From NCBI GenBank assembly GCA_963797555.1, contig CAWCPV010000015.1, positions 10,585-74,584 on the forward strand: a stretch of 64,000 bases of DNA, written 5' to 3'. Source of the stretch: an uncultured Gammaproteobacteria bacterium. Its GTDB lineage: Bacteria; Pseudomonadota; Gammaproteobacteria; CAWCPV01. Below are positions 3,909 to 57,227 of the stretch, one piece after another (position 1 is the first letter of the stretch; the number at the start of each line of letters is the position of its first letter). The notes under the pieces are model-generated. The model made no database searches, had not been told where the DNA came from, and worked only from the letters and a program-made list of their open reading frames with translations. A program made the position numbers and the translations under genes.

Positions 3909-4059
3909 CCGTTCACGGCGATATTCGCAGTCCGGAACATGAGACGGGTTACCGCGCCGCCACCGGCCCCTTCGATCTCCGTCTCCTGCGAGAGAGGTGA
4001 GGGGGCAAAGGGCGTCTGCGGAGCATGTTCTCGGTAACCACTATAAGGTAGTAGCTGTC

Positions 4060-4530
4060 ATGCCCAGAAAAGGTTCTGTTCCAAGGCGGGCTATTCTGCC
4101 CGACCCCAAATATGGCAACGTCACCGTGGCCAAGTTCATCAACGTGCTGATGCGCGCTGGGAAAAAGCCGGTGGCCGAGAAGATCGTGTACGGCGCTATG
4201 GAACGTATTGCAGGGAAGGGCAAGGGGGAGCCGGTCGAGTTGCTCGACAAGGCGCTCTCCAACGTGCGCCCCATGGTCGAGGTGAAGTCGAGGCGGGTAG
4301 GCGGAGCCAACTATCAAGTGCCCGTGGAGGTCCGTGCTCTGCGTTCCCAGGCTCTGGCCATGCGCTGGCTGGTGGATGCCGCGCGCAAGCGCGCCGGAAA
4401 GTCCATGGGCGACCGGCTGGCGTCCGAGATTCTGGACGCTTCCGAGAGCCGGGGAGCCGCCGTCAAGAAGCGTGAGGATACGCACCGCATGGCCGAGGCG
4501 AACAAGGCGTTTTCGCATTACCGGTGGTAA
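4060..4530 (+). CDS. rpsG: 30S ribosomal protein S7
   Basis: MPRKG start, [23 protein letters not shown]. Confidence 0.99.
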
Positions 4531-4548
4531 TCCTGGGAGCGACTGACC

Positions 4549-6642: not shown

Positions 6643-6678
6643 TTCATCAGTGTCGGTCGTGGCCTCAGGAGCACATCG

Positions 6679-7869
6679 ATGGCTAAGGAGAAGTTTCAGC
6701 GCACCAAGCCGCATGTCAATGTGGGCACTATTGGGCATGTGGATCATGGCAAGACCACGTTGACGGCGGCGATCACCAAGGTGATGGCGGCGAAGTTTGG
6801 TGGGGAGTTCAAGAGCTATGATCAGATCGACTCGGCGCCCGAGGAGAAGGCGCGTGGGATTACCATTGCCACGGCGCATGTGGAGTATCAGTCGGAGAGG
6901 CGGCACTATGCGCATGTGGACTGTCCCGGGCATGCCGATTATGTGAAGAACATGATCACCGGTGCGGCGCAGATGGACGGGGCCATTTTGGTGGTCTCGG
7001 CGGCTGATGGTCCGATGCCCCAGACGCGCGAGCATATTTTGCTGGCGCGTCAGGTGGGGGTGCCCCACATCGTGGTGTACATGAACAAGGCGGACATGGT
7101 GGATGATCCCGAGTTGTTGGAGTTGGTGGAGTTGGAGGTACGGGATCTGCTGAGCAGCTATCAGTTTCCTGGGGATGACACGCCGGTGGTGGTGGGTTCG
7201 GCGCTGAAGGCGTTGGAGGGGGATGGCTCCGAGCTTGGGGTGCCGTCCATCTACAAGTTGATGGAGGCGATGGATGCGTTCATTCCGGTGCCTGAGCGTG
7301 CGGTGGATCAGCCGTTTTTGATGCCCATTGAGGATGTGTTCTCGATCTCTGGGCGTGGGACGGTGGTGACGGGGCGGGTGGAGCGTGGCAAGGTCAAGGT
7401 GGGTGAAGAGGTCGAGATTGTGGGGTTGAGGCCCACGCAGAAGACCACGGTGACTGGGGTGGAGATGTTTCGCAAGCTGCTCGATGAGGGGGTAGCGGGG
7501 GACAATGTGGGGGTGTTGTTGCGTGGGACCAAGCGTGATGAGGTGGAGCGTGGGCAGGTGGTGTGCCGGCCCGGTTCCATCACTCCGCACACTCAGTTTG
7601 AGTGTGAGGTGTATGTGTTGTCGAAGGAGGAGGGGGGTCGGCACACGCCGTTTTTCCATGGGTACCGGCCGCAGTTTTACTTTCGCACCACGGATGTGAC
7701 CGGCTCCATTGAGTTGCCCGAGGGGGTAGAGATGGTGATGCCTGGGGACAATGTGAAGCTGAAGGTGAATCTGATTGCCCCCATTGCCATGGAGGAGGGA
7801 GTGCGCTTCGCCATCCGCGAGGGCGGACGCACCGTCGGCGCCGGCGTGGTGTCGAAGGTCATCGAGTAG
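6679..7869 (+). CDS. tuf: Elongation factor Tu
   Basis: [31 protein letters not shown]. Confidence 0.99.
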
Positions 7870-7874
7870 TCTCC

Positions 7875-8186
7875 ATGGCAAAACAGCGAATTCGTATACG
7901 GCTGAAGGCATTCGATCACCGGCTGATCGACCAGTCTGCGCGGGAGATCGTCGAGACCGCGAAACGCACAGGTGCGCATGTGCACGGTCCTATTCCGCTG
8001 CCGACCAAGAAAGAGCGCTTCACTGTGCTGACCTCTCCCCACGCCGATAAAGACGCGCGCGATCAGTACGAGATCCGGACCCACAAGCGCCTCATGGACA
8101 TCATCGATCCCACCGACAAGACGGTGGATGCGTTGATGAAGCTCGATCTGGCAGCGGGCGTGGACGTGCAGATCAAGCTCTACTGA
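7875..8186 (+). CDS. rpsJ: 30S ribosomal protein S10
   Basis: [21 protein letters not shown]. Confidence 0.99.
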
Positions 8187-23104: not shown

Positions 23105-23782
23105 AACCGTGCGTAGCGGCTTATCACGCTCACATCCAATGGGCTGCGCTCGCCCGCGAGGAAGCGAGTGTTTCGCTGGCTACAGCCCGTGTGGCGAGAG
23201 CAGGACGATCTGTGCCAAGGCGTGGCGGGCGTCGGAGCAGGATTCTCCCGCTCTCTGATCGCAGAGCTACCCCGCAGTTGCCTGTCATGCTTGATAGCAA
23301 ACACGGTTGCTCTCCCGCAAGCGGGCGAGGGGGATTTTGCGGCGCCTACGGCGCACTTTCACGTTAATTCGTTAATTAAAGAGTAATCATTTTCCAAACC
23401 TGCGCTGCTTGCGTAGTCGCGCGGAATCGCTTGCGGCGGATCGTCCTTCCCCGGGTTGGCGGGAGACTCACCAAGCGCGCAGAACGCTTGTTGGTGGCGG
23501 GCTCCATGACCCTTATCGGACGGTTGTCCACGGATATCCACAAGAACTGTGGAGATCTCAAGCCGGGCCGATGCGGCTCGAACTCCGCTCTACCGGCAGG
23601 CGGGGACTCGGGCAGGCCCTACGCTGTCTCTCTCCCCCGGTGTAAAAGAATCTCGGTTGCCATCAAACTCCGGCTTCAGGGGTCGGTCTAATTCTTTAAG
23701 TAAGGTGCGAGGATTTTTCCTCGCCCCGGGGAGGAGCACGCAAGAAAGCCTGGGGCGAGGCGGGCGTTCGCGCGGAGGCGTG

Positions 23783-24991
23783 ATGCGCAAGTTGGCCAGG
23801 GCACTCATGCTGTGTGTTGCTGCCGTACCACTTGCTTACGCGGGCGGACAGGGCGGAGCTTATTCTCTCGGCGGGTTCGGTGCCGGAGTTTCGACGGGTC
23901 ACTTCGGCAGCGGGCGCTCGTTCGGTAGCTTCGGGGGTGGCCACTCTAGCCGTAGCTTCGGCAGCGGGCGCTTCAGCGGCGGCCAGCCTGCCGGCGGCTT
24001 CGGTGGGGGGCGCGCCGTCGGTCGTGCGGGCGGGGGACCCTCTGTCGGCAACTTCGCTAGCGGGCACTCCGTCGGGAGCTTCAGCGACCAGCCATCTGTC
24101 GGCGGCTCCGCTGCTGGACGCTCTTTTGGCCGCCCGAGCTTCGGTCGCCCGAGTGATGGCCGGCTTGGGCGCAGCGTCGGAGCTGAAAGCTCCGTCGGAG
24201 ACCTCGAGGTCGGGCGCTCCGTCGGTGGCTTCTCCACCGAGCGCCCCATCCGTAGGTTCAACGGTGAGCCCGCTGTCGGCACGCTCGGTGCTGAGCGTTC
24301 GTTGCGCAGTTCCGCGCTGGAAGAGTCTCCCGGCAGGCCGAGTGGCAGGCGCATCTCCGCCGACGCGGTCGCTCCTCACCCTGCGGGTCCCAGCATAGGC
24401 GATGCTCCTGCCGAGCAACCCGGCACGCGGTCCACCATTTACCGATGGGTGGACGGGAAGGGGACCTTGCACTTTTCGGATAGGCGCCGCGGTGAGGGAC
24501 AAGCCGCTGGAGCAGAGGTTCTGGCGCACGACTCGCCCGTCTTAACGTCGACGACGCTGCCACGGCGAAACGTAACGTCACCCGGAGAGCGCGACGCACA
24601 GCGAGGGAGCCACGTGACCAACGGTCCTGGCGCGGCTCATCCCGGGGGTAGCCGGACAATCGACGGTGGGGCGACGAGTGGCCCTCATATCGGTAACGCG
24701 GGTTGGGGGCATGGGTTCCGACACCATCGCCATCACAACGCTCACCGCCGCCCCGTTGAACTCCTGGTGTTTGCGCCGTTTTACCCATTCTTGAATTTTG
24801 GCTATCCCTACGGTTATTACCCGTACCCTTACACCTTCGATGCATACGATGGCTACGGCGACTACTGTGATCCAAACTCTCCGGCTTACGATCCCTCCCG
24901 GCTCGGCACCTACGGCGATGAGCTGATTTGCTGCAGCCCATATTCTCCCTACTATGATTCCGACCACTGCGTAAACGCCGACGAGTCCTGA
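23783..24991 (+). CDS. Secreted Gly/Ser/Phe-repeat protein with DUF4124-like motif and Tyr/Pro-rich tail
   Basis: GGAGG RBS, signal peptide MRKLARALMLCVAAVPLAYA, TIYRWVDGKGTLHFSD motif. Confidence 0.65.
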   Translation: MRKLARALMLCVAAVPLAYAGGQGGAYSLGGFGAGVSTGHFGSGRSFGSFGGGHSSRSFGSGRFSGGQPAGGFGGGRAVGRAGGGPSVGNFASGHSVGSFSDQPSVGGSAAGRSFGRPSFGRPSDGRLGRSVGAESSVGDLEVGRSVGGFSTERPIRRFNGEPAVGTLGAERSLRSSALEESPGRPSGRRISADAVAPHPAGPSIGDAPAEQPGTRSTIYRWVDGKGTLHFSDRRRGEGQAAGAEVLAHDSPVLTSTTLPRRNVTSPGERDAQRGSHVTNGPGAAHPGGSRTIDGGATSGPHIGNAGWGHGFRHHRHHNAHRRPVELLVFAPFYPFLNFGYPYGYYPYPYTFDAYDGYGDYCDPNSPAYDPSRLGTYGDELICCSPYSPYYDSDHCVNADES

Positions 24992-28792: not shown

Positions 28793-29443
28793 TTAGTGCC
28801 CGGCTGTCTGTGCCCGGCGCAAGAGGGCCACAGTGATATCATGCGCTACCATGCCGCAGTAGGCCCCTGCGATGACATCGCTCAGGAAGTGGTAGCCGGT
28901 GCCCATGAGCGCGGCTGCCAAGACGCAGGACAGCCCCACACACCAGGCGCGCGATCCCGGATAGAAGCGCGATACGGCCAGCAGGGCCGCGGCAAACACC
29001 GACATATGGCCGGAGGGGAAGGCATCGAGCTGCGCGGCGCCGCCCCACCAATGGAAGCCATAGAGTTCCGGATGATCAAGCCACTGCCGTGGCGAGGGCC
29101 GCCCAAACATATACTGAAGTCCCGTCTTGAGGGCATAGGCGACGACGACCGAACTGCCAAGGAGCTGAAAGAAACGCGCCGCGATGGATGCGGGCTCCCG
29201 AGTTTCAAGGTACAGGGCAAGCGTCCAGCTCCCGAGCGCAGTCACCATCACCAGCGCCAGCAGCAGATCGGGGATAGCGCCGGTGGCGCGGCTGAGTGCA
29301 GCGTTATGAAAAATGACCCTGGCCACCGACCGTGCGATGGGCATATCCAGATACCTGAAGCTCACGGCCACCGTGGCGACGACGGCAACAAAACCGATAA
29401 TAGTCCTTCCACTCAGCCATTCGAGTCTCGTGTATATCGACAT
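28793..29443 (-). CDS. PAP2 family membrane phosphatase
   Basis: FGRPSP, FPSGH, YHFLSDVIAG motifs and TM helices. Confidence 0.9.
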   Translation of the reverse strand: MSIYTRLEWLSGRTIIGFVAVVATVAVSFRYLDMPIARSVARVIFHNAALSRATGAIPDLLLALVMVTALGSWTLALYLETREPASIAARFFQLLGSSVVVAYALKTGLQYMFGRPSPRQWLDHPELYGFHWWGGAAQLDAFPSGHMSVFAAALLAVSRFYPGSRAWCVGLSCVLAAALMGTGYHFLSDVIAGAYCGMVAHDITVALLRRAQTAGH

Positions 29444-29563
29444 CGTTCAGGGCTTCCGGGCTGGGGTGTGGCAGGCTAACTTCTGCGCATGCGGTTGCCA
29501 TGCGGGCGCTCACCATGACGGTGGAGGACCTGCCATAATCCTCCCACCCGACGCCGGCCATGG

Positions 29564-30010
29564 TCAGGGGCATCCCCTCCCCGGGCGGTAGCCCGCCATC
29601 TCGGCCGCCTGACGGCTGGTGAAGTAGGTCTTGTGCTCCGAGCGCTCGGCGTGCGCGTAGCCGGGACTCCCGGGAAATGATAGACGTGACTGCGGGTGTT
29701 CCCGATGACCGGGCCAAAGAACGCGACGCGGGAAGTGGTGAGTCGCGGTTCTCCGAAAGCATCGGAGCCAGCGGTCTCACTGGCCGACCGGTAGGGCTCG
29801 GAGTGCTGCTGGTGGACTTGCCAGTTCTGGCGGTACAGGGCCGCGAGCCGTGAGTGAGAGCACCAGCACGTTTTCGGCGTTGTTCTCCTCCGCAGCCGGA
29901 GTGAAGTTGAAAGAGCCCGTGACCACGATGCTCCTGTCGATCACCATCACCCTTGTTGTGGGCGATGGCGTGTTGGCGGTCGACCCAGACAGGACGCCGG
30001 CGTCTGGCGA
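29564..30010 (-). pseudogene. 5'-truncated PLD-family (Nuc-like) nuclease fused to an Ada-type metal-binding domain, frameshifted
   Basis: HAIAHNK/VMVID...TGSFNFT..AEENNAEN, then VIGNTRSHVYH...YFTSRQAAEMAGYRP across three frameshifts. Confidence 0.7.
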
Positions 30011-30032
30011 CCTCATGGTCGGCCCCCCGCGG

Positions 30033-30659
30033 TCAGTGCTTGCCATAGTCGAGCGCAACACCCTTTCGCTGCGCGTACAAGTAAGCTTCTAGCGCTCTCA
30101 TCTTCGGGTCATCCGCACTCAAAGGCTTGCCTTTGACCGGATGCTCTATGCACCAGTTGATCATGTCTCGGAGCAGAGCGACACGTCCGAGCTGTTCTTG
30201 AAACTTGGGATAGGTCTCTGGGTGTGTGTTGGCACCGTTGGGATGGCACATATCACAGGAGACGCCTATGGTGCCACGCAGCTCCGTTGCGCTGTGGAAA
30301 ACGGTGGAACCGTATACCGCGAGCTTGTAGGTCTCTCGCTGCCACATCTGTGTGTCCGGCTTGGTGACGTCGGCATAGATGGACCCTTGGCCGCGGCCGA
30401 CCTGATCGCTGTTATCGGCGGGGGCGACCACCGTATGCCTTTCCAGCTCCTCCTTCATCCAATGGATCTCCGGGTGACCGGTCAGCCACTGAGCCATTAT
30501 CGCCGGGTCCAAGCTTTGGGCTTGCGGGCTAGCCTCGGCCGGAGAAATCCGGACGTGGCTCTGCTTGGCTACCTCGGTCTGGGTGGCGCCACGGCTGTCT
30601 GGTGGGCCGATAAGGCAGGCCAGCGCGGCAATTGCACCGTACAGCTTAACCCTGTTCAT
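30033..30659 (-). CDS. Periplasmic monoheme cytochrome c, SoxA/TsdA-like domain
   Basis: Signal peptide, CDMCH, YPKF...LRDMINWC. Confidence 0.8.
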   Translation of the reverse strand: MNRVKLYGAIAALACLIGPPDSRGATQTEVAKQSHVRISPAEASPQAQSLDPAIMAQWLTGHPEIHWMKEELERHTVVAPADNSDQVGRGQGSIYADVTKPDTQMWQRETYKLAVYGSTVFHSATELRGTIGVSCDMCHPNGANTHPETYPKFQEQLGRVALLRDMINWCIEHPVKGKPLSADDPKMRALEAYLYAQRKGVALDYGKH

Positions 30660-30709
30660 GCCTCTCTCCTCAGTGAATGCCTCGTCCCTCGGATTATCGA
30701 GCGCAGCGC

Positions 30710-31852
30710 CTAGTAGCTCGTGAGGTTCGGTTCCGCCGGCCGGTCCGCCTGACCGCCGCTGGTGAGGTACGCGGCCTTGACCTGCACCGGATTACGGTTC
30801 CAGAATCGATACACCGCATCCTTTAGCCCCTCGGGATTTGCCCGGAACGTGCCGTCCCCGAGAGCGTCATTGCGATTAAAGGGATTCGCCCGGTCCATCT
30901 GCACCGTAAGTTTTGGCAACCCTTCCGGGGCATACGGCCAGGGCCAGGCCGTCGAGAGCATGCCGTAGAAGTTGATGTTGCCGATGCGGTTCATCAGCAT
31001 CTGGTGGGTATGGCCGTGGACGACACTGACCGTTCGGAATCGGCCGAGAATCGCCTGAACCTCATCGGCGTCCTCGGTCCAGAAATTCCACGGCCGGTAG
31101 TACTTGTACAGAGGAGAGTGGGAGAACACGATGACGGGTGTCTCCGGGGTGTAACGGGCCAGGTCGTTCTTTAGCCAGTCTCGCTGCTCCTCCCCCACCT
31201 TGAAGCGCCCCTGGATTCCGTTGTCCAGGCCCGCGACCGTCTGCATCCGTTCCATGGGCGTCATGCCGCGGGCGGTCCAAAAGTCGTCCTCATAGACACT
31301 CTGCAGCACGACGAAGTGCACGCCCTTATGGTCGAAGGAGTAGGTCGGCTTGCCAAAGAGCTGCTGCCAAGTCTCACCGAGATCGTAGAACCAGTCGTGC
31401 TCGCCGACCATCACCTTGAGGGGCGCCTTGATAACCTTGAGAATCTCCGCTCCCATGTGCAGCTCTGCCGGCTGACCAAGCTGGGCCAGGTCGCCCCCGA
31501 AGAGCACGAAGTCGGGCTGGGGATTCATGCTGTTGATGTCATCTACCGCCCGCAGCATCTGATTCACGAAACGGTCGTTGACGTTCTTCGTATAGAGGTG
31601 AGCGTCCGACAGATAGGCGAAGGTAAAGCCCTGGCCGTCAGCACCGCCTTCGGCCCCGAAGGCGACTTCCACCGGTTGGAAGCCATGAAAAGGATGGCTC
31701 ACTCCAGCCGACAGGGCTCCGCCGGCGGCCGCGATTGCCACCTTCAGGAAGGAGCGGCGGTCGAGGTTGCGCAGTCCCCGGAAAAAGGTCTCGCGCTCCT
31801 CGTAGTACCGGGTCTCCACGCTCTTGACGTGGGGTATTCTCTTTGCACCCAT
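30710..31852 (-). CDS. Tat-exported calcineurin-like metallophosphoesterase
   Basis: DRRSFLK Tat motif; DAH, GGD, GEHD, SH, HGHTH metal ligands. Confidence 0.88.
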   Translation of the reverse strand: MGAKRIPHVKSVETRYYEERETFFRGLRNLDRRSFLKVAIAAAGGALSAGVSHPFHGFQPVEVAFGAEGGADGQGFTFAYLSDAHLYTKNVNDRFVNQMLRAVDDINSMNPQPDFVLFGGDLAQLGQPAELHMGAEILKVIKAPLKVMVGEHDWFYDLGETWQQLFGKPTYSFDHKGVHFVVLQSVYEDDFWTARGMTPMERMQTVAGLDNGIQGRFKVGEEQRDWLKNDLARYTPETPVIVFSHSPLYKYYRPWNFWTEDADEVQAILGRFRTVSVVHGHTHQMLMNRIGNINFYGMLSTAWPWPYAPEGLPKLTVQMDRANPFNRNDALGDGTFRANPEGLKDAVYRFWNRNPVQVKAAYLTSGGQADRPAEPNLTSY

Positions 31853-31864
31853 GGCCCGACCTCC

Positions 31865-33214
31865 TCAGCGCCCGCTGTACTTGCTCAAATCCACTTTCAC
31901 GCGCTCCTGGAATGGGAGCTCTTTCCGTCCGCGAGCGCGGTATCGCGCAACGGCCTGTTCTTTCGGGCCATCGCCGATTGCTGGGCGCGTGCGTCGGCGT
32001 TCTGTTTGGCGAAGCGCTCATCGGTCAACGTGAGCAGGAATGCGACCATGTCATCGATCTCGTCGTCGGTGAGTCCCAGAGGCTGAATGCCGCCATCGAG
32101 AAACGGATTGGCCTCACCGCCCTTGTTGTAGTGATCCATGACATCCCACAGCGTCGCCAGGGAGCCATCGTGCATGTACGGCGCGGTGATGCCGATGTTT
32201 CGGATCTGCTCGGTCTTGAAGGCGCCAATATCTGCGGGAGCCTTGGTCACGAGAAAACGCCCCAGCTCGGAAAGGTCGGTCTGCAACGCCAGTACATCTA
32301 CCGCTTGCAGGCCCCCTGCCGTCTCGAGCGCCGCCAACGCCCGCTGAGCCAGCGCCTCGAAATCCTGGTGACGCGCGGCAACGCCGATGTTGTGGAAGCG
32401 GTTGTCGGTGCCGAGCGGCTGCGCCGGATTCAGCATGTGGCACGAGACGCAACGGGCCTTCCCGTTGAACAACGCCCAGCCACGCTTTGCTTGGGCGGAG
32501 ATGGCCCGCTGGTCGCCGGCCAGGAAGCGGTCGAACGGCGCATCCAGGAATACGAGGGTACGCTCGAAGGTTGCGATGGCGCGGGCCAGGTCCTCGTAAT
32601 TGGGGTCGTGCCCATAGGCCTCGTGGAACATCTTGATGTAGTCGGGATCCTTTGCGACGGCCGCGATCGCCTGCGCCTGGTTGGGCTGTCCCATCTCGAC
32701 GGGGTTCAGGATCGGCAGCTTCGCCTGGGCCTCCAGCGAGGGCGCGCGACCGTCCCAGAACAAGCTGTCGAAGAACATCGCGTTCAGCGTCGTCGGCGCG
32801 TTGCGTTTGCCGTGCTGGCTACGGATGCCCTCGGAGGTCTTGCGCCGATCGGTGAACGCCTTGCCCACGTCGTGACAGGTCGCGCAGGCCACCGTCCCGT
32901 CTGCGGACAGCCGGGTCTCGAAATAAAGTCTCTTGCCGAGCGCCACCCGCGCGGGGGTGATCGCGTTGTCCGCAGGCACCACCATGGCGTCCCAGACGCC
33001 CCGGTCTACCGTTGGCGGCAGTTGTGTCACGGGCTGGTTGGGGTCTCGGCCTGCCAACAACTGATGCAACTGAGCGATTTGCTGATCCATCGGCTGCGCG
33101 CCGTGGAGATCCCTCGGTGCCGCTCCGCAAGCTGCAATCCAGCCCGCAGGAGCTCAGCACGACGACGGCATGGAGAGTCATGAGCTGACACACCCGCGAT
33201 GCTCGCTTGTCCAT
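31865..33214 (-). CDS. Diheme cytochrome c peroxidase, MauG-like; frameshifts near both ends
   Basis: CATCH and CVSCH, RNAPT, FWDGRA, TAPYMHDG...HYNKGG; N-terminal leader and C-terminal ELPFQER...SGR lie in shifted frames. Confidence 0.88.
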
Positions 33215-33309
33215 GGCAAACGACTCCGACGGTGGTAAAGGAATTTTAGACGTGGTCCAAGCCTAAACCACGGAAATCCCCTTTGCAAGGCCCGGCGGAT
33301 TAGTTTTCG

Positions 33310-33352
33310 TCGTTGCTCTCGGGCCGCTCGCGAGGATTCGTGCACAGGCTCT
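33310..33352. repeat. MITE-like repeat family, degenerate right end (copy 2)
   Basis: CTCTCGGGCCGCTCGCGAGGATTCGTGCACAGGCTCT resembles 50686-50724. Confidence 0.4.
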
Positions 33353-33469
33353 GAGGGGTTCAGGGGCGCCGGCTCACCGGTACCTAGGGACCGATGTAAC
33401 CATGCGCGCCGGGGGTGGTTTAACATCTGTGTGCGGCGGGACGCCGCAGCATTCCAACGGAGATCCGCC

Positions 33470-35116
33470 ATGTCCATGCGCCATCCCACTATCGGACGTT
33501 ATCTCCTGCAGAGCCTGCACCGGGCCGGCATCGGGCATGTGTTCGGAGTGCCCGGTGACTATGTGTTGCGCTTCTACGATGAGCTGACGCGCGGGCCGCT
33601 GGTGCACATCGGGACGACACGCGAAGACACGGCGGCATTCGCGGCGGATGGCTATGCGCGCTGCCGCGATCTGGGTGCGCTGGCGGTGACCTATGGGGTC
33701 GGGGCGCTCAATGTGGTGAACGCGGTGGCAGGGGCTTTCGCGGAGTCCTCGCCGGTGGTGGTGATCAGCGGTGGCCCGGGCGTGCGTGAGCGGCGCGAGG
33801 ACCCGCTGATCCACCACCGCTTCGGCCCCTTTACTTTTCAGCGCGAGATCTTCGAGCGCATCACCTGCGCCACCGCGGTGCTGGATGATCCGCTCACCGC
33901 CTTCCGCGAGATCGACCGCACCGTGCAGGCGGCGCGCTCGCACCGCAAGCCCGTCTATATCGAGCTGCCGCGCGACGCCGTGGATACGCCGGGCTTTCCG
34001 GTGCCTTCCGAGCCATTGAGCGAGCCGGGCAGCGATCCCGCTACGCTGCAGGAGGCGGTCGAAGAAACCGTGGCACAGCTCGCCCGCGCCGCACACCCCG
34101 TCGTATTGGCTGGTGTCGAGGTGCACCGGCGCACACTCCAGGACGAGCTGGCGCGTTTCGTGCTGCGCACGCACTTGCCGGTCGCGGCGACGCTCACCGG
34201 CAAGTCGGTGATCGGGGAGCGGCATCCGGCCTACCTTGGCGTCTACGAGGGAGCGATGGGCGCTGAGGCGGCACGACGCGCCGTAGAGGAGGCGGACCTG
34301 CTGCTGATGTTCGGCGTCACGCTCAACGACGTCGATCTCGGCGTGTACACCGCTCGCCTCGACCCCAACCGCATGGTGCGTGCCAGCCAAAACGAGGTGG
34401 TGATCCGTCACCACCGCTATGCGCAGGTGTCGCTGCGCGATTTTCTGGTGGCACTGGCCGAGACCGCGCCGCAGTTGAGTGTGGTCTGGCCCGAAGCCGG
34501 CTGTGGTCCCACCGCGCCCGGGTTCCCCGAGGCCGGACGGCCCATGTCCACGGCACGCCTGATCGGGCGCTTGAACACCGCCTTGACGCCGGATATGACG
34601 GTCGTGGCCGACACCGGTGATTGCCTGTTCGCGGCCATCGAGATGCGCGTGCACGAGCGCACCGAGTTCCTGGCCTCGGCGTTCTACACCACCATGGGCT
34701 TCGCGGTGCCGGCCGCGCTCGGCGCACAGGTCGCGCGCCCCGAGCGCCGCCCGCTGATCCTGGTCGGCGACGGGGCGTTCCAGATGACCGGCACCGAGCT
34801 TGCTACCGCCGCGCGTCTAAAGCTCGATCCCATCGTGGTGGTGTTCAACAACGGCGGCTACGGCACAGAGCGCTACATCCTCGATGGGCCGTTCAACGAC
34901 ATCAGCGCATGGCGCTTCGATCGCCTGGGGGAACTGTTCGGCCCGCTGCACGGCTTCGATGCGCCCGATGAGGCGTCGTTCGAACGCGCGTTGCTGGCCG
35001 CGCTGGATCTGCGTGCGGCACCGAGCGTGATCAACGTGCACCTTGCGCCCGACGATGCCTCTCCGGCGATGCGCAGGCTCGCCGAGCATCTGCGCGCCCG
35101 CATAGCCGGTCAGTGA
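33470..35116 (+). CDS. Thiamine-diphosphate-dependent alpha-keto acid decarboxylase (pyruvate/indolepyruvate decarboxylase family)
   Basis: FGVPGDY, AADGYAR, TYGVG, IHH, GDGAFQMTG...NN TPP motif. Confidence 0.93.
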   Translation: MSMRHPTIGRYLLQSLHRAGIGHVFGVPGDYVLRFYDELTRGPLVHIGTTREDTAAFAADGYARCRDLGALAVTYGVGALNVVNAVAGAFAESSPVVVISGGPGVRERREDPLIHHRFGPFTFQREIFERITCATAVLDDPLTAFREIDRTVQAARSHRKPVYIELPRDAVDTPGFPVPSEPLSEPGSDPATLQEAVEETVAQLARAAHPVVLAGVEVHRRTLQDELARFVLRTHLPVAATLTGKSVIGERHPAYLGVYEGAMGAEAARRAVEEADLLLMFGVTLNDVDLGVYTARLDPNRMVRASQNEVVIRHHRYAQVSLRDFLVALAETAPQLSVVWPEAGCGPTAPGFPEAGRPMSTARLIGRLNTALTPDMTVVADTGDCLFAAIEMRVHERTEFLASAFYTTMGFAVPAALGAQVARPERRPLILVGDGAFQMTGTELATAARLKLDPIVVVFNNGGYGTERYILDGPFNDISAWRFDRLGELFGPLHGFDAPDEASFERALLAALDLRAAPSVINVHLAPDDASPAMRRLAEHLRARIAGQ

Positions 35117-37152: not shown

Positions 37153-37290
37153 TGCGGGCTCCGCTCGATATCAACGCGTTGATCGCGGTTCTGGATGCCG
37201 CCCACGTGCATCGCCTCCCTGCGCGGGTGTGACCGGCGGGCGGCGATCGCTCACGGCTGGGCCTCCTGCCCGATCACCCAGAACGGCCCC
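37152..37290 (+). pseudogene. VapC/PIN toxin N-terminal remnant
   Basis: [20 protein letters not shown] then stop and frameshift; [11 protein letters not shown]; rest deleted. Confidence 0.7.
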
Positions 37291-37311
37291 GAAAATTCTG
37301 GAGATCTAGTG

Positions 37312-37620
37312 ATGTCTGCCCGCATCGCCGTGCCCCGCGACCATATTGCAGATTTCTGTCGGCGCAACCACATCCGTCGGCTCGCACTGTTCGGCTCGGT
37401 GCTCCGCGAGGACTTCGGTCCAAGAAGCGACGTGGATATCCTGGTAGAGTTCGAGGAGGGCTACACCCCAGGGTTTCTCGGGCTCGCGAGGATGGAGCGG
37501 GAGCTTTCCGAGGTGTTCGGCGGCCGCAAGGTGGACCTGCGCACGCGCGCGGACCTCAGCCGCTATTTCCGCGACGAGGTGGTCGCTGCGGCGGAGCTGG
37601 AGTATGAGACACCAGGATGA
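37312..37620 (+). CDS. Minimal nucleotidyltransferase (MntA-type antitoxin)
   Basis: [19 protein letters not shown]. Confidence 0.9.
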
Positions 37621-37951
37621 AATCCGCCTGCGGCACATGCTGGACGCGGTTCGAGAGGCGATGTCGTTCGCCCGTCATCGAACGAGACAGGACCTCGATG
37701 CGGACCGCATGCTCGTCCTCGCCCTGGTGAAGGACATCGAGATCATCGGGGAAGCGGCGAACAGCATCAGCCAGGAAACCCGCGCCAGGCTGCGCCACAT
37801 CCCATGGCGCGACATCGTGGGCATGCGGAACCGGCTGATCCACGCGTACTTCGATGTCGACTTGGACGTGGTGTGGCAGACGGTGACCAGTGACCTGCCT
37901 GCATTGGAGCCGCTGCTCGTCGACGCACTGGGGACTCCGCCCAACTCGTGA
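37604..37951 (+). CDS. HEPN toxin (HepT/DUF86)
   Basis: [19 protein letters not shown] RxxxxH motif; overlaps MNT gene. Confidence 0.9.
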
Positions 37952-38798: not shown

Positions 38799-39305
38799 AT
38801 GAGTGCAGCGCAACGTTTCGTTCCCGATCCGAGAGTCGAGGCCGCCATCGAATTCGGCCTCGGCCTTGAGATCGATGCCCCGTGGGAGACCAATGGACAA
38901 GGACAGATCATCCTGAATCCGCCCATCGGTCTCGCCCACGCCAAGCGTGCCGACCGCATTGCCGTGGCCATCCGGTCGCTCCTGCCCGACTGGCACGTGT
39001 GGTCAGGAGTCGGGATCCATACCGCCGACGGGGTGAAAGCGCCCGATCTGGCCGTCGCTCCCCCGGATTTTGACGAAGCCACGGACTCGCGGGGCTTCCT
39101 CGTCCGCGCACCGGACATCTGCGTGGAGATCATGTCGCCCTCCAATACCTGGGAAGAGATGCGTCACAAGACACTGCTCTATCTGGCCGCCGGGGCGAAG
39201 GAGGTGTGGGTGTGCGACGAAAGCGGGGCGCTGCATTTCTTCGACGGCGCCGGAGAGCGAAGCGCATCGGCCTTGGCCACCGGGATGGCCAGCAGTATCG
39301 GCTGA
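38799..39305 (+). CDS. Uma2 family PD-(D/E)xK endonuclease-fold protein
   Basis: KAPDLAV, APDICVEIMSPSN, YLAAGAKEVW. Confidence 0.9.
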   Translation: MSAAQRFVPDPRVEAAIEFGLGLEIDAPWETNGQGQIILNPPIGLAHAKRADRIAVAIRSLLPDWHVWSGVGIHTADGVKAPDLAVAPPDFDEATDSRGFLVRAPDICVEIMSPSNTWEEMRHKTLLYLAAGAKEVWVCDESGALHFFDGAGERSASALATGMASSIG

Positions 39306-48221: not shown

Positions 48222-48501
48222 GGCTTGCGCCCCGAGGAGGCTTGGTGGCTGTTCGGCATGACCGCCCTCGCGACGGGCGGCATCAATGATGCGGACAAGG
48301 GTTGGCGGGTTGCGCTGTGCTAGGCGCTGGGCGACGTGGCCCAGAACGGGCTGATCAAGCGGCGGCGCCTGGCGGCGAAGGAGGGGCAGGGCGGGCATAC
48401 GGCACTGCCGTTGTTCGAGGATTGAATTCCTCCAGAGAAGGCAAGATTGACTCGCCTGAGAGTCCCAACCAATATGGTTGCAACCAGCGAGGTATATTTC
48501 C

Positions 48502-48786
48502 ATGCCTTCCCTCACCTTGAAAGACATTCCGATGCCCCTGATGGAACGGCTGCGCGCACGCGCCGCGGAGGATCAGCGGAGCCTGAATCGGGAAGCCATC
48601 TGGCTGCTGGAGCAGGCCCTGGAGCCATCCGGCGATGCCGCGCTGCGTCTGCAGCAAGAATGCGAAGCCCAGGTTGCCGCCTGGAATGCGCTGGCTGGAC
48701 GCTGGCAGGGAACCGAGGAAGAAACGGATGCGGTGGTCGAAGACATCTACCAATCCCGCACCCGGGGTCGAGAGATCACGCTTTGA
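48502..48786 (+). CDS. FitA-like RHH antitoxin
   Basis: MPSLTLKDIP..LMERLRARAAEDQRSLNREAI. Confidence 0.85.
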   Translation: MPSLTLKDIPMPLMERLRARAAEDQRSLNREAIWLLEQALEPSGDAALRLQQECEAQVAAWNALAGRWQGTEEETDAVVEDIYQSRTRGREITL

Positions 48787-49193
48787 AGCTGCTGGATACG
48801 GACGTTTGCATCGAGATCCTGCGCGGCAACCCACGGGTTCTGCAACAGCGCACCGCTATCCCGGACCGGATCGCCACGACCTGGATCACAGCCTGCGAGC
48901 TGGCCTACGGTGCAGCCAATTCCCGGCACCCGAAAGAAAAGCAGACCCTGGTGACGGAATTCCGGTCCACGCTGCCGCTCGTTGACTTCAACCTGGCCAG
49001 CGCACTGCTCTTCGGGAGCCATAAGGCACGCCTGCGTCGGGGTGGAGCGTCCGTCGCGGATGCGGACCTGATGATCGCTTCGATTGCCCTCGCCCACGGT
49101 GCGACCCTGGTCACTGGCAATACCCGTCATTAGGAGCGGTCCGATGGTTTGCTGTTGGAGAACTGGATACGCGAGCCGCCGCGGGAGCGGTAG
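48783..49193 (+). pseudogene. VapC/PIN toxin with in-frame amber stop at 49131-49133
   Basis: LLDTDVCI, ELAYG, DLMIASIA, LVTGNTRH*ERSDGLLLENW. Confidence 0.8.
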
Positions 49194-51978: not shown

Positions 51979-52274
51979 CGATGGCTGAGGCACGCTCGTA
52001 CCGAGGGGGTTCGGCTGACTGCTTAACGGTCACTGTGTCCCGTGCCGCAGGGCATTATGTCCTCTGCGCGCGTTGCTGCGCGGGTGTTGGCGCCGGCGCG
52101 GAGGATGCCTCGTGTCACTTCCGCTCGACGCCGTCCCCGCATCCCCGATAAATAAGGCGACGCCGCGTTCCGGCAGCACGAGCCCTTGCCCCAGCCTCCC
52201 TGTTCATCCGCATGCGCATGCGGCTGCGCCCTCGAGATTCCGAGCGAAGGCCGCGCCCGGACATCGCCCAGCGC

Positions 52275-52403
52275 ACAGGGGTCGATAGTCCTCCACAGGG
52301 CGTCGGCGCTGTGGTTCCAGCTCCAACGCACATCCAGGGCCAGCTCCGCGAGGCCCGCCAACGGCTCGGGCAAGGGACGCAGGAAATAATGGGCAGGATG
52401 CAT
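52275..52403 (-). pseudogene. glgP: Alpha-glucan phosphorylase N-terminal remnant
   Basis: LPEPLAGLAELALDVRWSWNHSADALWRTIDP then loss of similarity. Confidence 0.75.
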
Positions 52404-52419
52404 AGGGTCCCCTCCGCCG

Positions 52420-52635
52420 AGAGCCTGTGAATCAATCCGCTGCGCTTTCCGACAGGGCGTTGCGCGGTGTTCATGGCGTACCTCCCTTTACGCCACCCCT
52501 TCGGGGTGTCCTGCGGACGTGCCGAATGGCTGTCCTGCCATTCGGTCGCTCGTCGCCTTTCGACTCGATGTGTCTCGTCGCCGCGCGCCGTGCGCCTCGC
52601 TCTCGGGCCGTCGGGACGATGCCTTCACAAGCTTT
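52420..52635. mobile_element. MITE-like element, longest copy (copy 5)
   Basis: Imperfect IRs AGAGCCTGTGAATCAATC ... GATGCCTTCACAAGCTTT, non-coding interior. Confidence 0.55.
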
Positions 52636-52695
52636 GAGATCGCCCCGCCCGGGGCCACACGGTGCTCATCGCTCGGCGACCGATACGCTCGCCTG

Positions 52696-54523
52696 TCATG
52701 CCGGCCCGGCTTCCGCCTCGGCTAGCGCGACGGTAGCCGCGATCAGCGACAGGTGGGTGAGGCCTTGGGGAAAGTTGCCGAGCATCTCCCGGCTGCGCGT
52801 GTCGTACTCCTCCGCAAACAGGCTCAGGTCATTGCCGGTGGCGACCGCTTTGCGGAACACCTCATGGGCCTCGTCCACCCTTCCCTGGCGCGCCAGGCAT
52901 TCGACGAGCCAGAAGGAGCAAGCGAGGAACACGCCTTCCCGGCCCGGCAGACCGTCGTCGTCGGGAGCATAACGCCGCAGCAATCCGTCCTCTGCCAGCC
53001 CGGACCGGACCGAGTCCGTGGTGCGGATCATGCGCGGGTCCTGATACTCCACAAAGCCGACGATGGGCAGGAGCAGCAAGGCCGCGTCCATCCGGGGACG
53101 GTCGAAGGCTTGGATGAAGACCCCGCGCTCGCGGCATCGTAGCCCTTCTCTTCCACTGCACGCCGTATCTCGTCGCGGGTGCGCTTCCAGTCCTCTACGG
53201 AGCGTCCCGTCCCAGATCCTCGGCAAGGCGGATCCCGCAGTCCAGCGCCGCCCAGCACATGGCCTTGGACTGGACGAAATGGCGGGGCTCGCCGCGCATC
53301 TCCCAGATCCCGCGGTCGGGCTCGCTCCAGAGCGCGGCTGCAGCGTTCACCAGCTCGACCAGGAATTCCCAGTAGTCGTCGTCCGGCGAGTGCCCCCGCT
53401 GGTGCCAGCGCCAGGCGAGGCCCAGCAGCTCGCCGTAAGCATCGAGCTGGACCTGTCCTTCGGCGGCGTTGCCGATGCGCACGGGCCTGGCGCCGCGATA
53501 GCCCTCCAGCTCCTCTACCGAGTGCTCGTGCAGGCGGCGCTCACCACCGACGCCGAACAGAATCTGCAGCTCCTCGGCGCTTCCGGCGGCGCTGCGCTCG
53601 ATGAAGCGGCGGAATCCGTCGGCCTCCTTCACGTGGCCTAGCTCTGCCAGGGAACGGACGGTGAAGGAGGAGTCGCGGACCCACGTGTAGCGGTAGTCCC
53701 AGTTCCTGGAGCCGCTGGGAGATTCGGGCAGCGAGGTGGTCGGGGCTGCGGCGATGGCCCCGGTGGGCGCGTTGGAGAGCCCCTTGAGAACGATGGCGGA
53801 ACGGCGCGCCAGTTCGGCGTACGGTCCGGCCACTGTGGTCCTGGACGACCAGTGATACCACCAGGCGATGGTCTCTTCCAGACGGCCGTCCAGCACACTG
53901 CTTTCGGGCGGTTCGACCAGCCCCTCGTCCAGGTCTTCCGGAAGGCGATAGAGGATCGAGAGCCGCGCACGGGCCCCCGGCCCGACCCTGAACGCCCCGA
54001 CCAGGTCGTGCCTGTGCTTCATCTCCAAAGGAAAGTCGCCGGAGATGAGCAGGCCGTCCGCGCCGCCGATGGCGATGTAGTGATGGGGGTCGCTGCGCCC
54101 GCGGATCCAGGGCTTGATGGCCCCGTAGTCGAACCGCGGCGCCACCGTGACGTGGAAGTCCACGCTGCCCTCGACGCCCTCCACGATGCGCAGCAGTTGC
54201 CCGTGGGGGTGGTGCTCTCCGCCCCTGCGCATCGGCAGGCAGTCCGTGAGCCGAGCGGAGCCCTGGTCGGTCCGGAACGTCGTCTCCAGGATGAGCGTCT
54301 GAGGAAGGTACTGCCGCTCGACGCGGTACTCTGCGGCGGGCTCAATCTGGCAGTAACCGCCCTCCTGCCAGCCCAGCAGGCGCCCGAAGCAGCTTCGCGA
54401 GTCGATGCGGGGCATGCAGCACCAGTCGATGGAGCCGGCGCGCGAAACCAGCGCCGCAGAGTGACAGTCCGAGAGGTACCCGTAGTCGGCAATCGGCGGG
54501 TAGGGTTCTCGAACGTCGCTCAA
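52696..54523 (-). CDS. Glycoside hydrolase family 15 (glucoamylase/trehalase-like), frameshifted near 53140-53200
   Basis: IAAAPTTSLPE, RNWDYRYTWVRD, QLDAYGE, GIWEMRG, LFAEEYD, GNFPQGLTH. Confidence 0.92.
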
Positions 54524-54538
54524 GTCCGCCTCCCGATC

Positions 54539-56389
54539 TCAGGGCTGCAGGACATAGGTGCCGGGCGCTTCACCGAGGGGAGGCAGGGCGTCGGCCGGCG
54601 CGCCCATGAGGGGAGGCGTCACCCGTTCCGAGGAGTGAGCGGCGAGCCAAGCGGTCCAGGCAGGCCACCAAGAGCCCTCGGAGCTGGCTACCGACGCTGC
54701 CCATGTTTCGGGGTCCACATAATGCTCGCCTTCACGGCGCGTGGTCATTTGGTAAGTTCTCCCCGGATGCCCCGGCTCGCTGACGATGCCGGCGTTGTGA
54801 CCCCCGCTGGTCAGCACGAAAGTGATCTCTTCGGCGTCCGCCAGCAGGTGGATCTTGTAGACCGAATGCCAGGGCGCGACGTGGTCTTTTACCGTTCCAA
54901 CCACGAACAGCGGGGCACGGATGTCGCTCAGCGCTACCGGGCGTCCCTCCACCTCGTAGCGGCCTTCCGCCAAATCGTTGTTGAGGAAAAGCTTTCGCAG
55001 GTACTCCGAATGCATGCGGTAAGGCATGCGGGTGAGGTCGGAATTCCACGCCATCAGGTCGAACATCGGCTGTCGCCGGCCGAGCAGGTAATCCCGTACC
55101 AGGCGGGACCAGATCAGATCGTTGGAGCGCAGGAACTGGAACGCTCCCGACATTTGCCGGGTGTCCAGGTAGCCCTGGTCCCACATCAGATCCTCCAGGT
55201 AGCTCACCTGACCCTCGTTGATGAAGAGCATCAGCTCCCCCGCCTCGGTGAAATCCGTCTGGGCCGCCAGCAGGGTGACGGTCCTCAGGCGACGGTCTCC
55301 GTTGCGGGCGAGGGTTGCGGCGGCGATGCTTAGAAGTGTGCCGCCCAGGCAGTATCCCACCGCATGCACGGCGCGACCGGGCAGCACGTCTGAACTGCGT
55401 CCAGAGCGGCGACGATCCTCAGTCCGCGATAATCCTCGAGGCTGAGGTCCCGATCCTCAGCGCTCGGGTTTTTCCAGGAGATCATGAACACGGTATGGCC
55501 GGCGTCGACCAGGAACTTCACCAGTGAGTTGTGGGGGGACAGATCCAGGATGTAGTACTTCATGATCCAGGCCGGGACGATGAGCACCGGCTCGGTATGG
55601 ACCGTATCGGTCGTGGGGGCATACTGGATCAGCTCGATCAGGCGGTTGCGGTAGATGACCTTGCCCGGGGTCACGGCCAGATCCCGCCCTGCCCGGAAGT
55701 TCTCGGCCCCCGCCGGCCTCTTGGCGCCGCCCGCCCGCTCCCAGTCCTCCAACAGGTTCATCCAGCCGCGCACCAGGTTCATGCCGCCTTCGCGGAAGGT
55801 CGCTGCGAGGACTTCCGGGTTGGTGAGCGGAAAGTTGGACGGTGACAGCACGTCGAGATACTGGCGCGTCATGAACGACACCACGTCCTCGCTGTGCTTC
55901 GCCACCCCCCGCACCCCGGTGGTGGCGTTGTGCCACCATTGCTGGCCGAGCAGGAAGGACTGATGGACGAGGTTAAAGGGAAAGACTTTCCAAGCCGGGT
56001 CCGCGAAGCGGTGGTCCTGGGGGAGCGGCTCGATGCAGGGGGGTATCCCCAGGCCGCACCGCGGACTGGGCAGCGTACAGCCCGAAGCGTAGTGCCTTGC
56101 GCAGCCCTTTCGCGACGAGCTGCGTTTGCTTGCCGGGCGAAACGGCGAGGTGCACCAGCCAGTCCAGGTAAGCCATGGAGAGCACCGCCGGCGACATGCC
56201 CAGGGTCAGCCGGGCCATGCCCGCGCTCAGGGCTCGGTCCACGATCTCGGACCCGTAGGACTGGTCCGGGTCCGGCGGCGGTGACCCGTCGTGGGGAATG
56301 GCACGGGCGCGCGGCTGCGGCTGCCTGGTCGGGGAGCCCGCCTTGGCAGCGTCCGGCCGCACGGTCTCCGACGCAGTATCGGTAATCAT
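54539..56389 (-). CDS. phaC: Polyhydroxyalkanoate synthase, frameshifted
   Basis: SPSNFPLTNPE, TPGKV, PAWIMKYYILDL, lipase box GYCLGG, DHVAPW, GGHNAG spread over three or more frames. Confidence 0.9.
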
Positions 56390-56420
56390 TGGATATTACC
56401 CCCTCGGCCGGGCGGGCATC

Positions 56421-56928
56421 TCACTGTGCAGTGGAGACGGGTCGGCCGGCATCCCCGTCGCCAGTCCAGGCATAGTCCGTCTGCACCCGCAGAGCTGTCA
56501 GCTCCGCGTGAATGGCCGTCAGCGCGCGGTCTTGCGCCGCCAAGTGAACGAGCACCGCCCGGACCTCCTCTTCGGCCTTCTGGTTCACCTGGTAGTCGTT
56601 GTGCGCTTCCAGGCGGTCCCGCTCCGCCTGACGGTTCTGGCTCATCATGATCATCGGCGCCGTATACGCCGCCTGCAGGGAGAGCAACAGGTTCATCAAA
56701 ATGAACGGATAGGGATCCCAGTGTCGTATCCAGGCGGTGACGTTCACGACCGCCCACACCAGCAGCAGGGCCGACTGGCCGATGATGAACGGCCAGGAGC
56801 CGACCGTGCCGGCCACCCGGTCGGCAGCCCGCTGCCCGAACGTGAGCCGCTGCTCCAAGAGTCTCATTGACGCTGCGAACCGGCGGGTGGCGGTGCCGGA
56901 AAGGCGCAGGAAAATGCAGCTTGCGCAT
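56421..56928 (-). CDS. DUF1003 family membrane protein (frameshift near 5' end)
   Basis: TFGQRAADRVA..GSWPF, DPYPFILMNL, APMIMMSQNRQ. Confidence 0.88.
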
Positions 56929-57227
56929 GGTGAATCTCCCCTCAGTAGAAACCTCAAACTTCCGTCTCGGTCCAGTCGTGGAACTCGCCCAGGTTCCCGA
57001 GGCGCCCGTCCACAAATTGACGATACCCGGTTACTTTGTCTCGAAGCGGCTGATGGATGCACCGACTGGGGCCCCGACATCCCGCACCCTTCTGGCCGGG
57101 GTCAGCGGCGGGTTGTGAGCGCTTCTGGTCGGTCACGCGGCTACTGCTGGGCTCGCGGGGCATGCCGGAGGCTTTCCGAGTTCTCGTGTAGGCTCGAGGC
57201 GACGTGCTCCATCGCCCAGCGGTACGC

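Follow-up and report, generated by a model that had tools for sequence, protein, structure and literature searches.

A MauG-like diheme enzyme, a Tat-exported metallophosphoesterase-fold protein and a SoxA/TsdA-type cytochrome c as a conserved gene triad and a possible peroxide-linked periplasmic redox module

An uncultured Gammaproteobacteria bacterium (assembly GCA_963797555.1) carries, on a 64,000-nucleotide stretch of contig CAWCPV010000015.1 (positions 10,585 to 74,584, hereafter the window), three adjacent minus-strand genes for a MauG-like diheme peroxidase (PER), a calcineurin-like metallophosphoesterase-fold protein with a twin-arginine translocation (Tat) signal (MPE), and a monoheme SoxA/TsdA-type cytochrome c (CYT). 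That these three genes are one functional unit is well supported. Our preferred reading goes further. Tentatively, with chances that we place slightly below even, we propose that PER, MPE, and CYT make up one conserved, stoichiometric, peroxide-linked periplasmic redox module, in which MPE would cycle between redox states and would not undergo a one-off maturation.

The triad travels as an operon across at least seven phyla. Scanning a species-representative genome collection matched at least 599 stretches, at least 577 of which encode an MPE relative, and we counted gene neighbors in the best 80 of these loci. In 78/80 loci PER preceded MPE, and in 75/80 CYT came after it, each on the MPE strand, with all misses at contig ends (L065 and L077 for PER; L006, L015, L018, L019, and L058 for CYT). 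The first-pass annotation of this DNA, made from the sequence alone, had described an orphan triad and suggested neighborhood conservation as a check. The genes are indeed co-conserved, and in the same order and on the same strand across phyla, which makes the label orphan untenable. The 80 loci came from Gamma- and Alphaproteobacteria, Myxococcota, Planctomycetota, Binatia, Acidobacteriota, Thermodesulfobacteriota, and one metagenome-assembled genome (MAG) labelled Spirochaetales, with MPE identities of 63-84% across phyla. Median gaps were 14 nt between PER and MPE and 22 nt between MPE and CYT (start sites are approximate), and the genes overlapped at 13/78 PER-MPE and 3/75 MPE-CYT junctions. 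All-against-all clustering of the flanking open reading frames (ORFs) found no further neighbor family in more than 16/80 loci. Cultured hosts include Cystobacter fuscus, Archangium minus, Chondromyces apiculatus, Methylocapsa polymorpha, and Nitrosococcus halophilus. A Methylocystis plasmid has the triad between Tn3 and IS6 elements, annotated as ‘cytochrome c peroxidase / metallophosphoesterase / hypothetical protein’.

PER and MPE also occur as one polypeptide. A search for PER-MPE fusions among longer proteins gave three matches, and two were accepted (P0272 and P0273; 744 and 745 aa). Both are coherent PER-linker-MPE proteins with CCP_MauG and Metallophos domains, 78% identical to each other over 703 aa with one gap. 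Each begins with a Sec signal, no longer has the twin-Arg in its linker, and retains HYNNGG and WPWPY. The third match, P0274, has an Arg-rich, out-of-frame-looking middle and was rejected as a frameshift artefact, as were three apparent MPE-CYT fusions (P0275, P0287, and P0291) with middle parts of the same kind. Because natural PER-MPE fusions exist, the sequences support PER and MPE acting as a stoichiometric pair.

PER is a member of the bCCP/MauG superfamily (PF03150, 190.3 bits vs a cut-off of 25.6) with two CxxCH heme motifs. We took conservation counts from 67-sequence alignments comprising the window copy and 66 further loci; seven of the 73 loci that carry the whole triad were left out for incompleteness. 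The first-pass annotation had read a Tyr in place of the Met ligand of canonical diheme peroxidases, and this held up: aligned by HMMER without gaps, Y321 pairs with MauG chain residue 294 (FYNK), and it is Tyr in 67/67 sequences. Y321 also falls on the Tyr of MbnH (6e1c; IYSEGG), while in canonical peroxidases the Met sits three columns further on within the aligned stretch. By sequence, DHYNKGG with its invariant Tyr replaces the Met-bearing stretch, and PER is not predicted to have the His/Met ligation of a canonical cytochrome c peroxidase (CcP). In the homologs MauG and BthA, Tyr294 and Tyr463, respectively, are heme ligands (PMC6405878). Gln122, Pro126, and Glu132 were each found in 67/67 sequences, and no distal His column was conserved. 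The inter-heme Trp (FWDG) reported in the first-pass annotation is present in the window as W112, but it is not a family trait: orthologs have Trp in 46/67 cases and Leu in 21/67.

We judged the placement of PER relative to MauG, MbnH, BthA, and CcP by profile scores. Among NCBIfam models PER was nearest to MbnH (TIGR04039, 237.8 vs a cut-off of 362.85) and then MauG (TIGR03791, 222.4 vs 443.85), below cut-off for both. Canonical diheme peroxidases (PDB 4AAL, 3O5C, and 1EB7) gave the highest overall scores, at 174-231 bits, driven by the N-terminal peroxidatic domain, which alone scored best against them (146 bits). The C-terminal heme domain instead scored best against MbnH (58 bits), followed by MauG (37) and CcP (30). 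BthA (PDB 6NX0) scored 67.7 bits as a single sequence and 101.5 bits as a profile, below CcP, MbnH, and MauG. Canonical peroxidases differ from PER in the Met-bearing stretch, and PER differs from them in having no conserved distal His and an obligate linkage to MPE and CYT. With MauG (MauG-preMADH, PDB 3L4M; preMADH, the methylamine dehydrogenase precursor) PER shares the Tyr294 equivalent, the distal Gln/Pro/Glu and, in the window, the inter-heme Trp, but it has no mau genes beside it. With MbnH (MbnH-MbnP, PDB 6E1C), which acts on a WxW Trp in a Trp-rich partner, it shares the Tyr context; its neighbor, however, is MPE and not MbnP, and there is no copper or methanobactin context. The alignment and conservation of Y321 support PER as a His/Tyr-type (MauG/MbnH/BthA-like) diheme enzyme and not a canonical Met-ligated peroxidase. 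Following the diheme core, orthologs have a conserved RPxRDxAxA in the C-terminal tail (31900-32010 in the window), which could be a docking peptide; the window tail leaves the family consensus downstream of it. One Gammaproteobacteria MAG (L001) has an additional, divergent CCP_MauG-like ORF (5172-6236, minus strand; 162 bits to PER) immediately ahead of its triad.

MPE matched PF00149 (52.5 bits vs a cut-off of 21.5) and has the two-metal ligand set, with D83, H85, D121, H152, H245, H281, and H283 conserved. Its predicted export signal, RRSFLKVAIAAAGGALSAG, scored 19.7 against a TIGR01409 cut-off of 16.7. Residues 1-31 (31760-31852) are an unusually long conserved region ahead of the twin arginines (KSVETxYxEERxxxFRGLxNLD), with S11, E13, T14, and R20 near-invariant and a helix in the model. 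A role in chaperone binding or proofreading is conceivable for this region, but the operon contains no chaperone gene. Modelling with AlphaFold2 (AF2) from a deeper alignment (A6) reached a predicted local distance difference test (pLDDT) score of 88.4, while the model from a shallow alignment (A1) scored 52 and was unusable. The top Foldseek matches of the deeper-alignment model were GpdQ (E 1e-13), Rv0805, and then SMPDL3 and purple acid phosphatases (E 1e-13 to 1e-8). The DxH, GD, H, GHxH ligand set is common to MPE, GpdQ, Rv0805, and purple acid phosphatases. MPE differs from them in its Tat export with the long region before the twin arginines, its GEHD motif, its coupling to hemoproteins, and an extra C-terminal region at residues ~300-380 that contains WPWPY and, in the AF2 model, a small beta domain. 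The MPE GEHD motif, which the first-pass annotation does not mention, aligns with GNHD of GpdQ. Its Glu151 is found in 67/67 orthologs, and among Tat-bearing relatives with 27-47% identity to MPE it is kept in 90% or more. By sequence, GEHD marks a distinct Tat-exported MPE family. We found 4802 word-sharing homologs of MPE; the best 120 have 65-100% identity and are mostly named CpdA/Icc by their sources, and clustering the family at 50% left one full-length representative. MPE fell far below the model for CpdA, a class III cyclic nucleotide phosphodiesterase (NF008359, 31.6 vs 225), and has GEHD, not GNHD, in 67/67 sequences. It also lacks the GDxxY Tyr of purple acid phosphatases, with GDLAQ instead and Q124 invariant.

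Among the closest known parallels to the pairing of PER with MPE is BthA with its neighbor PhosA in Burkholderia. Like the triad, this system places a His/Tyr diheme CCP_MauG-family enzyme beside a secreted metallophosphoesterase-superfamily protein with no mau operon (PMC6405878). The same source reports that bthA always lies beside a putative purple acid phosphatase gene, that this phosphatase is a suggested target of BthA, and that both genes are up-regulated anaerobically (PMC6405878). BthA, as described there, has no inter-heme Trp, as is the case for 21/67 PER orthologs. The adjacency of a secreted phosphatase-like neighbor, typical of the BthA class, is equally found for PER, although MPE belongs to a subfamily other than the purple acid phosphatases. 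The source places PhosA, described as a purple acid phosphatase, at the outer membrane (PMC6405878), whereas MPE is Tat-exported and GpdQ-like, with GEHD and without the GDxxY Tyr. PER is only distantly related to BthA, for which no SoxA-like cytochrome is reported. In Flavobacterium, phoX is in one operon with a MauG-like gene (PMC8812569).

These parallels bear on a plainer explanation, that MPE is an ordinary periplasmic phosphodiesterase or phosphatase which, like purple acid phosphatases and PhoX, requires a centre containing Fe(III), and that PER, with CYT as electron partner, only oxidises or protects the metal site or detoxifies H2O2 alongside it. The fold and ligands shared with GpdQ, Rv0805, and purple acid phosphatases, the CpdA/Icc names given to the family, and the MauG-like genes beside phosA in Burkholderia (PMC6405878) and phoX in Flavobacterium (PMC8812569) all speak for it. 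Yet neither phosphate-regulon nor phosphate-transport genes recur near the triad in the 80 loci, MPE departs from CpdA in score and in having GEHD for GNHD, and the fusion or coupling of distant relatives to a Rieske domain, a cupredoxin, or an oxidase, described below, would be superfluous for a simple hydrolase. We regard this explanation as distinctly unlikely.

The first-pass annotation had instead proposed that PER modifies MPE. Spelled out, PER would be a maturase that uses H2O2 to oxidise an MPE Trp, for example in WPWPY, to a kynurenine- or quinone-type cofactor or ligand near the two-metal site, with CYT supplying or removing electrons. A misaligned Tyr, an unconserved WPW, or a lack of gene co-conservation, which the annotation had named as refuting results, did not turn up: PER Y321 aligns with the Tyr of MauG and MbnH, WPWPY follows the last metal ligand in 67/67 sequences and is retained in the PER-MPE fusions, and the genes are co-conserved. 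In a weak HMMER domain (6.4 bits) the GpdQ residue aligned with MPE W303 is His217 by chain numbering, which presumably lines the GpdQ active site. There is precedent in MbnH, which converts Trp174 of the WxW motif in MbnP to kynurenine (PMC11951088), and in the proposal of the BthA authors that the neighboring phosphatase is oxidised (PMC6405878). The WPW motif itself is less telling than it seemed. Each of the nine Trp in MPE reaches 95% conservation or more, and the invariance of WPW is for this reason uninformative; mean column identity in the MPE alignment is 73%. Only 10 of 21 relatives at 29-47% identity have WxW; in Tat-bearing relatives at 27-47% identity the first WPW position is aromatic in 20/21. 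Some members of this wider Tat-GEHD family have other redox partners. Further points against a maturase are that the known ones, MauG and MbnH, are separate catalytic proteins while a 1:1 fusion exists here, that the inter-heme Trp used for hole hopping in MauG is Leu in 21/67 PER orthologs, and that PER scores under the NCBIfam cut-offs for both families. On balance we consider the maturase explanation unlikely.

CYT carries a SoxA/TsdA-type domain (PF21342, 43.8 bits vs a cut-off of 27). The Cys motif noted in the first-pass annotation proved sound, as Cys170 of INWC aligns with the Cys (INAC and FRGC) of both SoxA 1h31 heme domains and is present in 67/67 sequences, as is Trp169. CYT shares the PF21342 domain and aligned Cys ligand with SoxA and TsdA, but it has a single heme domain and a novel N-terminal region, and no SoxX, SoxYZ, or SoxB accompanies it. 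It did not reach the cut-off for the SoxA of thiosulfate oxidation (TIGR04484, 37.5 vs 110), there is no sox operon in the window, and a look-up of CYT in the ESM Atlas returned its own family only. P0290, a single case, combines a short SoxA-like cytochrome with a PhnD-like phosphonate-binding domain; it is either a fusion or a read-through of neighboring genes and is no more than a lead for a phosphorus-oxyanion link.

Distant MPE relatives keep other redox partners. P0237 combines a Tat-MPE and a Rieske domain in one fusion protein, and in Ralstonia a cupredoxin is the next gene after a distant MPE relative. Rhizobium gallicum and Phyllobacterium zundukense encode a 45%-identical MPE with a SoxA-like cytochrome after it, and then COX1 and a FixO with two cytochrome c domains. 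On the megaplasmids of these two species (L087, 6009-11608; L086, 6020-11714) the MPE-cytochrome operon also includes a CarboxypepD_reg-like protein along with the cbb3-type oxidase, and hemA, SCO, and a P-type ATPase lie beside it. In Sinorhizobium meliloti a 47%-identical MPE and a CYT-like ORF are divergent from fccB, a cytochrome c gene, soxZ, and soxY. The CYT-like ORF, right after the MPE paralog, is unannotated (L082, 7069-7416) and possibly disrupted at its 5' end. Within 5 kb of a Burkholderia multivorans MPE relative (33% identity) there was no PER-like ORF.

The S. meliloti arrangement is indirect support for a Sox-like sulfur chemistry. In this model a sulfur anion (thiosulfate or sulfane) would be bound or oxidised at the His/Cys heme of CYT, as in SoxA and TsdA, a bound sulfonate would be hydrolysed by MPE in the manner of SoxB, and PER would pass the electrons to H2O2. 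The SoxA/TsdA domain of CYT with its invariant Cys fits this idea, SoxB itself belongs to the metallophosphoesterase superfamily, and 4/80 loci have a rhodanese gene immediately after the triad. The family models do not follow suit, since CYT remained below the SoxA cut-off and no NCBIfam SoxB model matched MPE at E ≤ 0.01. The gene neighborhoods also count against it: sox genes are absent from Pfam scans of the window, neither sox nor mau genes recur in the neighborhoods of the 80 loci, the CYT-like ORF of S. meliloti may be disrupted, and the Rhizobium and Phyllobacterium MPE-CYT pair occurs with a cbb3-type oxidase, not sox genes. We therefore hold this sulfur chemistry to be quite improbable.

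The module often adjoins peroxide-type regulators and peroxide-detoxifying genes. A Fur-family gene is directly upstream on the same strand in 15/80 loci, with one more on the opposite strand, and the best NCBIfam models for these neighbors were PerR or Irr. An OxyR-like LysR regulator adjoins the triad in 9/80 loci; OxyR was the best model in 5/5 tested, all below cut-off. OxyR-type regulation of canonical diheme cytochrome c peroxidases is known. Downstream of the triad were KatG in 2/80 loci and a peroxiredoxin in 2/80, and in P0278 the CYT ORF runs into an AhpC/TSA domain as a joined ORF. None of KatG, peroxiredoxin, rhodanese, or the peroxide-type regulators occurs in the window.

Beyond gene linkage and residue conservation, the mechanistic steps of our preferred reading are ones that we infer. 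H2O2 would react at the open five-coordinate heme of PER, where Gln122, Pro126, and Glu132 are found without a conserved distal His. As in MauG, MbnH, and BthA, the His/Tyr heme would share the oxidising equivalent, which would then pass to the presumably tightly bound MPE, either to the two-metal centre, with its Glu for Asn, or to conserved aromatic residues. The probably low-potential His/Cys heme of CYT would be a third redox station, as electron donor or relay. The MPE-fold protein would thus be a redox-active catalytic or substrate-binding subunit that cycles in turnover, and not a plain hydrolase modified once. A cycling redox complex is the most economical reading because PER is a His/Tyr enzyme and the relatives of MPE keep one-electron partners; the permanent 1:1 fusion and the Rieske, cupredoxin, and cytochrome-cbb3 pairings fit continuous electron exchange better than a one-off Trp modification.

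Several points weigh against a cycling complex. MPE keeps the full hydrolase-type ligand set, and its nearest solved relatives, GpdQ and Rv0805, are true phosphodiesterases. Self-processing stays compatible with a PER-MPE fusion. Peroxide-type regulators, PerR/Fur-like or OxyR-like, flank only 24/80 loci and not the window copy, whose PER has no in-frame signal peptide. Because the order of the genes sets PER, and not CYT, beside MPE, the role of CYT is the least constrained.

Regarding the window copy itself (Table 1), motif coordinates and residues were confirmed by translation. The first-pass annotation had counted three tightly spaced, co-oriented exported proteins. There are indeed three minus-strand ORFs with small gaps, 44 nt from the PER stop (31897) to the MPE start (31852) and 50 nt from the MPE stop (30710) to the CYT start (30659), but PER as written has no signal peptide. 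Its start had been placed at 33214, and this does not stand: the ATG there is in another frame, and the PER frame is interrupted by a TGA at 33154-33156, with 33090 as its first ATG. The PER frame is open upstream to 33153, with no ATG, GTG, or TTG ahead of 33090. PER orthologs have a lipoprotein-type signal, then a PRGxHGA motif, and then the core, in a single frame throughout. The window signal (...VVVLSSC) occupies the +1 frame, whereas APAGWIAAC...PRDLHGA, ahead of the ATG at 33090, shares the frame of PER. This pattern points either to one surplus base from an assembly error or to a real inactivating frameshift, around 33153-33180. With the signal peptide out of frame, the window copy would work only if the shift is a sequencing error. 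On reading, the ribosomal protein operon of the window (8.2-13.2 kb) is intact, and several gene fragments are found at 52-59 kb.

Table 1 Features of the triad in the window, with residue conservation in the 67-sequence alignments.
Feature	Position	Strand	Details
PER (diheme peroxidase)	31897-33090	-	397 aa from first in-frame ATG; PF03150 CCP_MauG, E 3.9e-56
PER, first heme motif CATCH	32872-32886	-	67/67 as CxxCH
PER, second heme motif CVSCH	32437-32451	-	67/67 as CxxCH
PER, Trp112 of LFWDGR	32755-32757	-	Inter-heme Trp position; Trp in window
PER, Tyr321 of VMDHYNKGG	32128-32130	-	Predicted axial ligand of six-coordinate heme; 67/67
Lipoprotein-type signal peptide (MDKRASRVCQLMTLHAVVVLSSC)	33146-33214	-	+1 frame relative to PER; from three-frame translations
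MPE (Tat calcineurin-like metallophosphoesterase-fold protein)	30710-31852	-	380 aa; PF00149, E 1.1e-13, and Tat motif
MPE, twin-arginine R32 R33 of Tat signal (RRSFLK)	31754-31759	-	Both invariant
MPE, GEHD metal motif	31394-31405	-	Glu151 where superfamily usually has Asn (GNHD)
MPE, WPWPY segment	30932-30946	-	~20 residues after GHTH metal ligands; 67/67
CYT (monoheme SoxA/TsdA-type cytochrome c)	30033-30659	-	208 aa, N-terminal signal peptide; PF21342, E 2.7e-11
CYT, heme motif CDMCH	30243-30257	-	67/67
CYT, Cys170 of INWC	30150-30152	-	Predicted thiolate axial ligand; 67/67

The window is chromosomal, since it has a ribosomal protein, secY, and rpoA cluster at 8-21 kb. In agreement with the first-pass annotation, none of the 68 window ORFs scanned with Pfam belonged to a mau, mbn, or sox family. 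We also scanned 29400-33600 and 33080-33450 for promoters, terminators, and palindromes, which gave nothing above shuffled sequences and no clear operator. The genes flanking the triad are unrelated to it: upstream is a divergent indolepyruvate/phenylpyruvate decarboxylase-like gene, and the downstream side has the remnant of a PLD nuclease and a PAP2 membrane phosphatase. The remnant (29563-30061, minus strand) is the C-terminus of a PLD-family nuclease (PLDc_2, E 2.3e-6) that overlaps the 3' end of CYT and is followed by a short other-frame stretch ending in ...AGYRPGRGCP, which may be an Ada-like zinc motif; it has the appearance of a decayed gene.

Elsewhere in the window, overlapping genes for a nucleotidyltransferase (NTP_transf_2) and a HepT-like ribonuclease (37195-37951, plus strand) are, on our own reading and named by no tool, presumably a MNT-HEPN type toxin-antitoxin pair. 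There is also a Uma2-family endonuclease at 38799-39305 and a PIN-domain ORF at 48447-49130. Apparently truncated genes near a DDE transposase (52026-59057 and 61084-62283), including a DUF3417 fragment, a GH15 fragment, an N-terminal piece of PhaC, and a 609-aa P-type ATPase without its C-terminal part, suggest local gene decay. A 1320-aa ORF (3949-7911, minus strand) had no Pfam match, and a 480-aa Gly/Ser/Arg-rich repetitive ORF (23549-24991, plus strand) had a weak DUF4124 match only.

A keyword literature search, which had subscription journals outside its reach, found no published description of the PER-MPE-CYT triad. To our knowledge, MauG-type diheme enzymes carry out long-range protein oxidation with partners known for only two of them (preMADH and MbnP), and the target of BthA is a guess. 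The triad offers a better defined case, with PER obligately linked to one partner and a natural fusion as evidence. A bolder extension, which we find doubtful but worth stating, is that Tat-exported GEHD MPE-fold proteins are a new periplasmic redox class whose two-metal site trades electrons with a His/Cys cytochrome, a cupredoxin, a Rieske domain, or a cbb3-type oxidase. In the triad PER would be the H2O2-reducing terminal partner, and the complex would oxidise a small substrate at the expense of H2O2; as speculation, this could be a sulfur or reduced-phosphorus oxyanion. If the MPE fold is redox-active, it would be a new cofactor scaffold for periplasmic electron transfer and peroxide biology, and thousands of CpdA/Icc annotations would be corrected.

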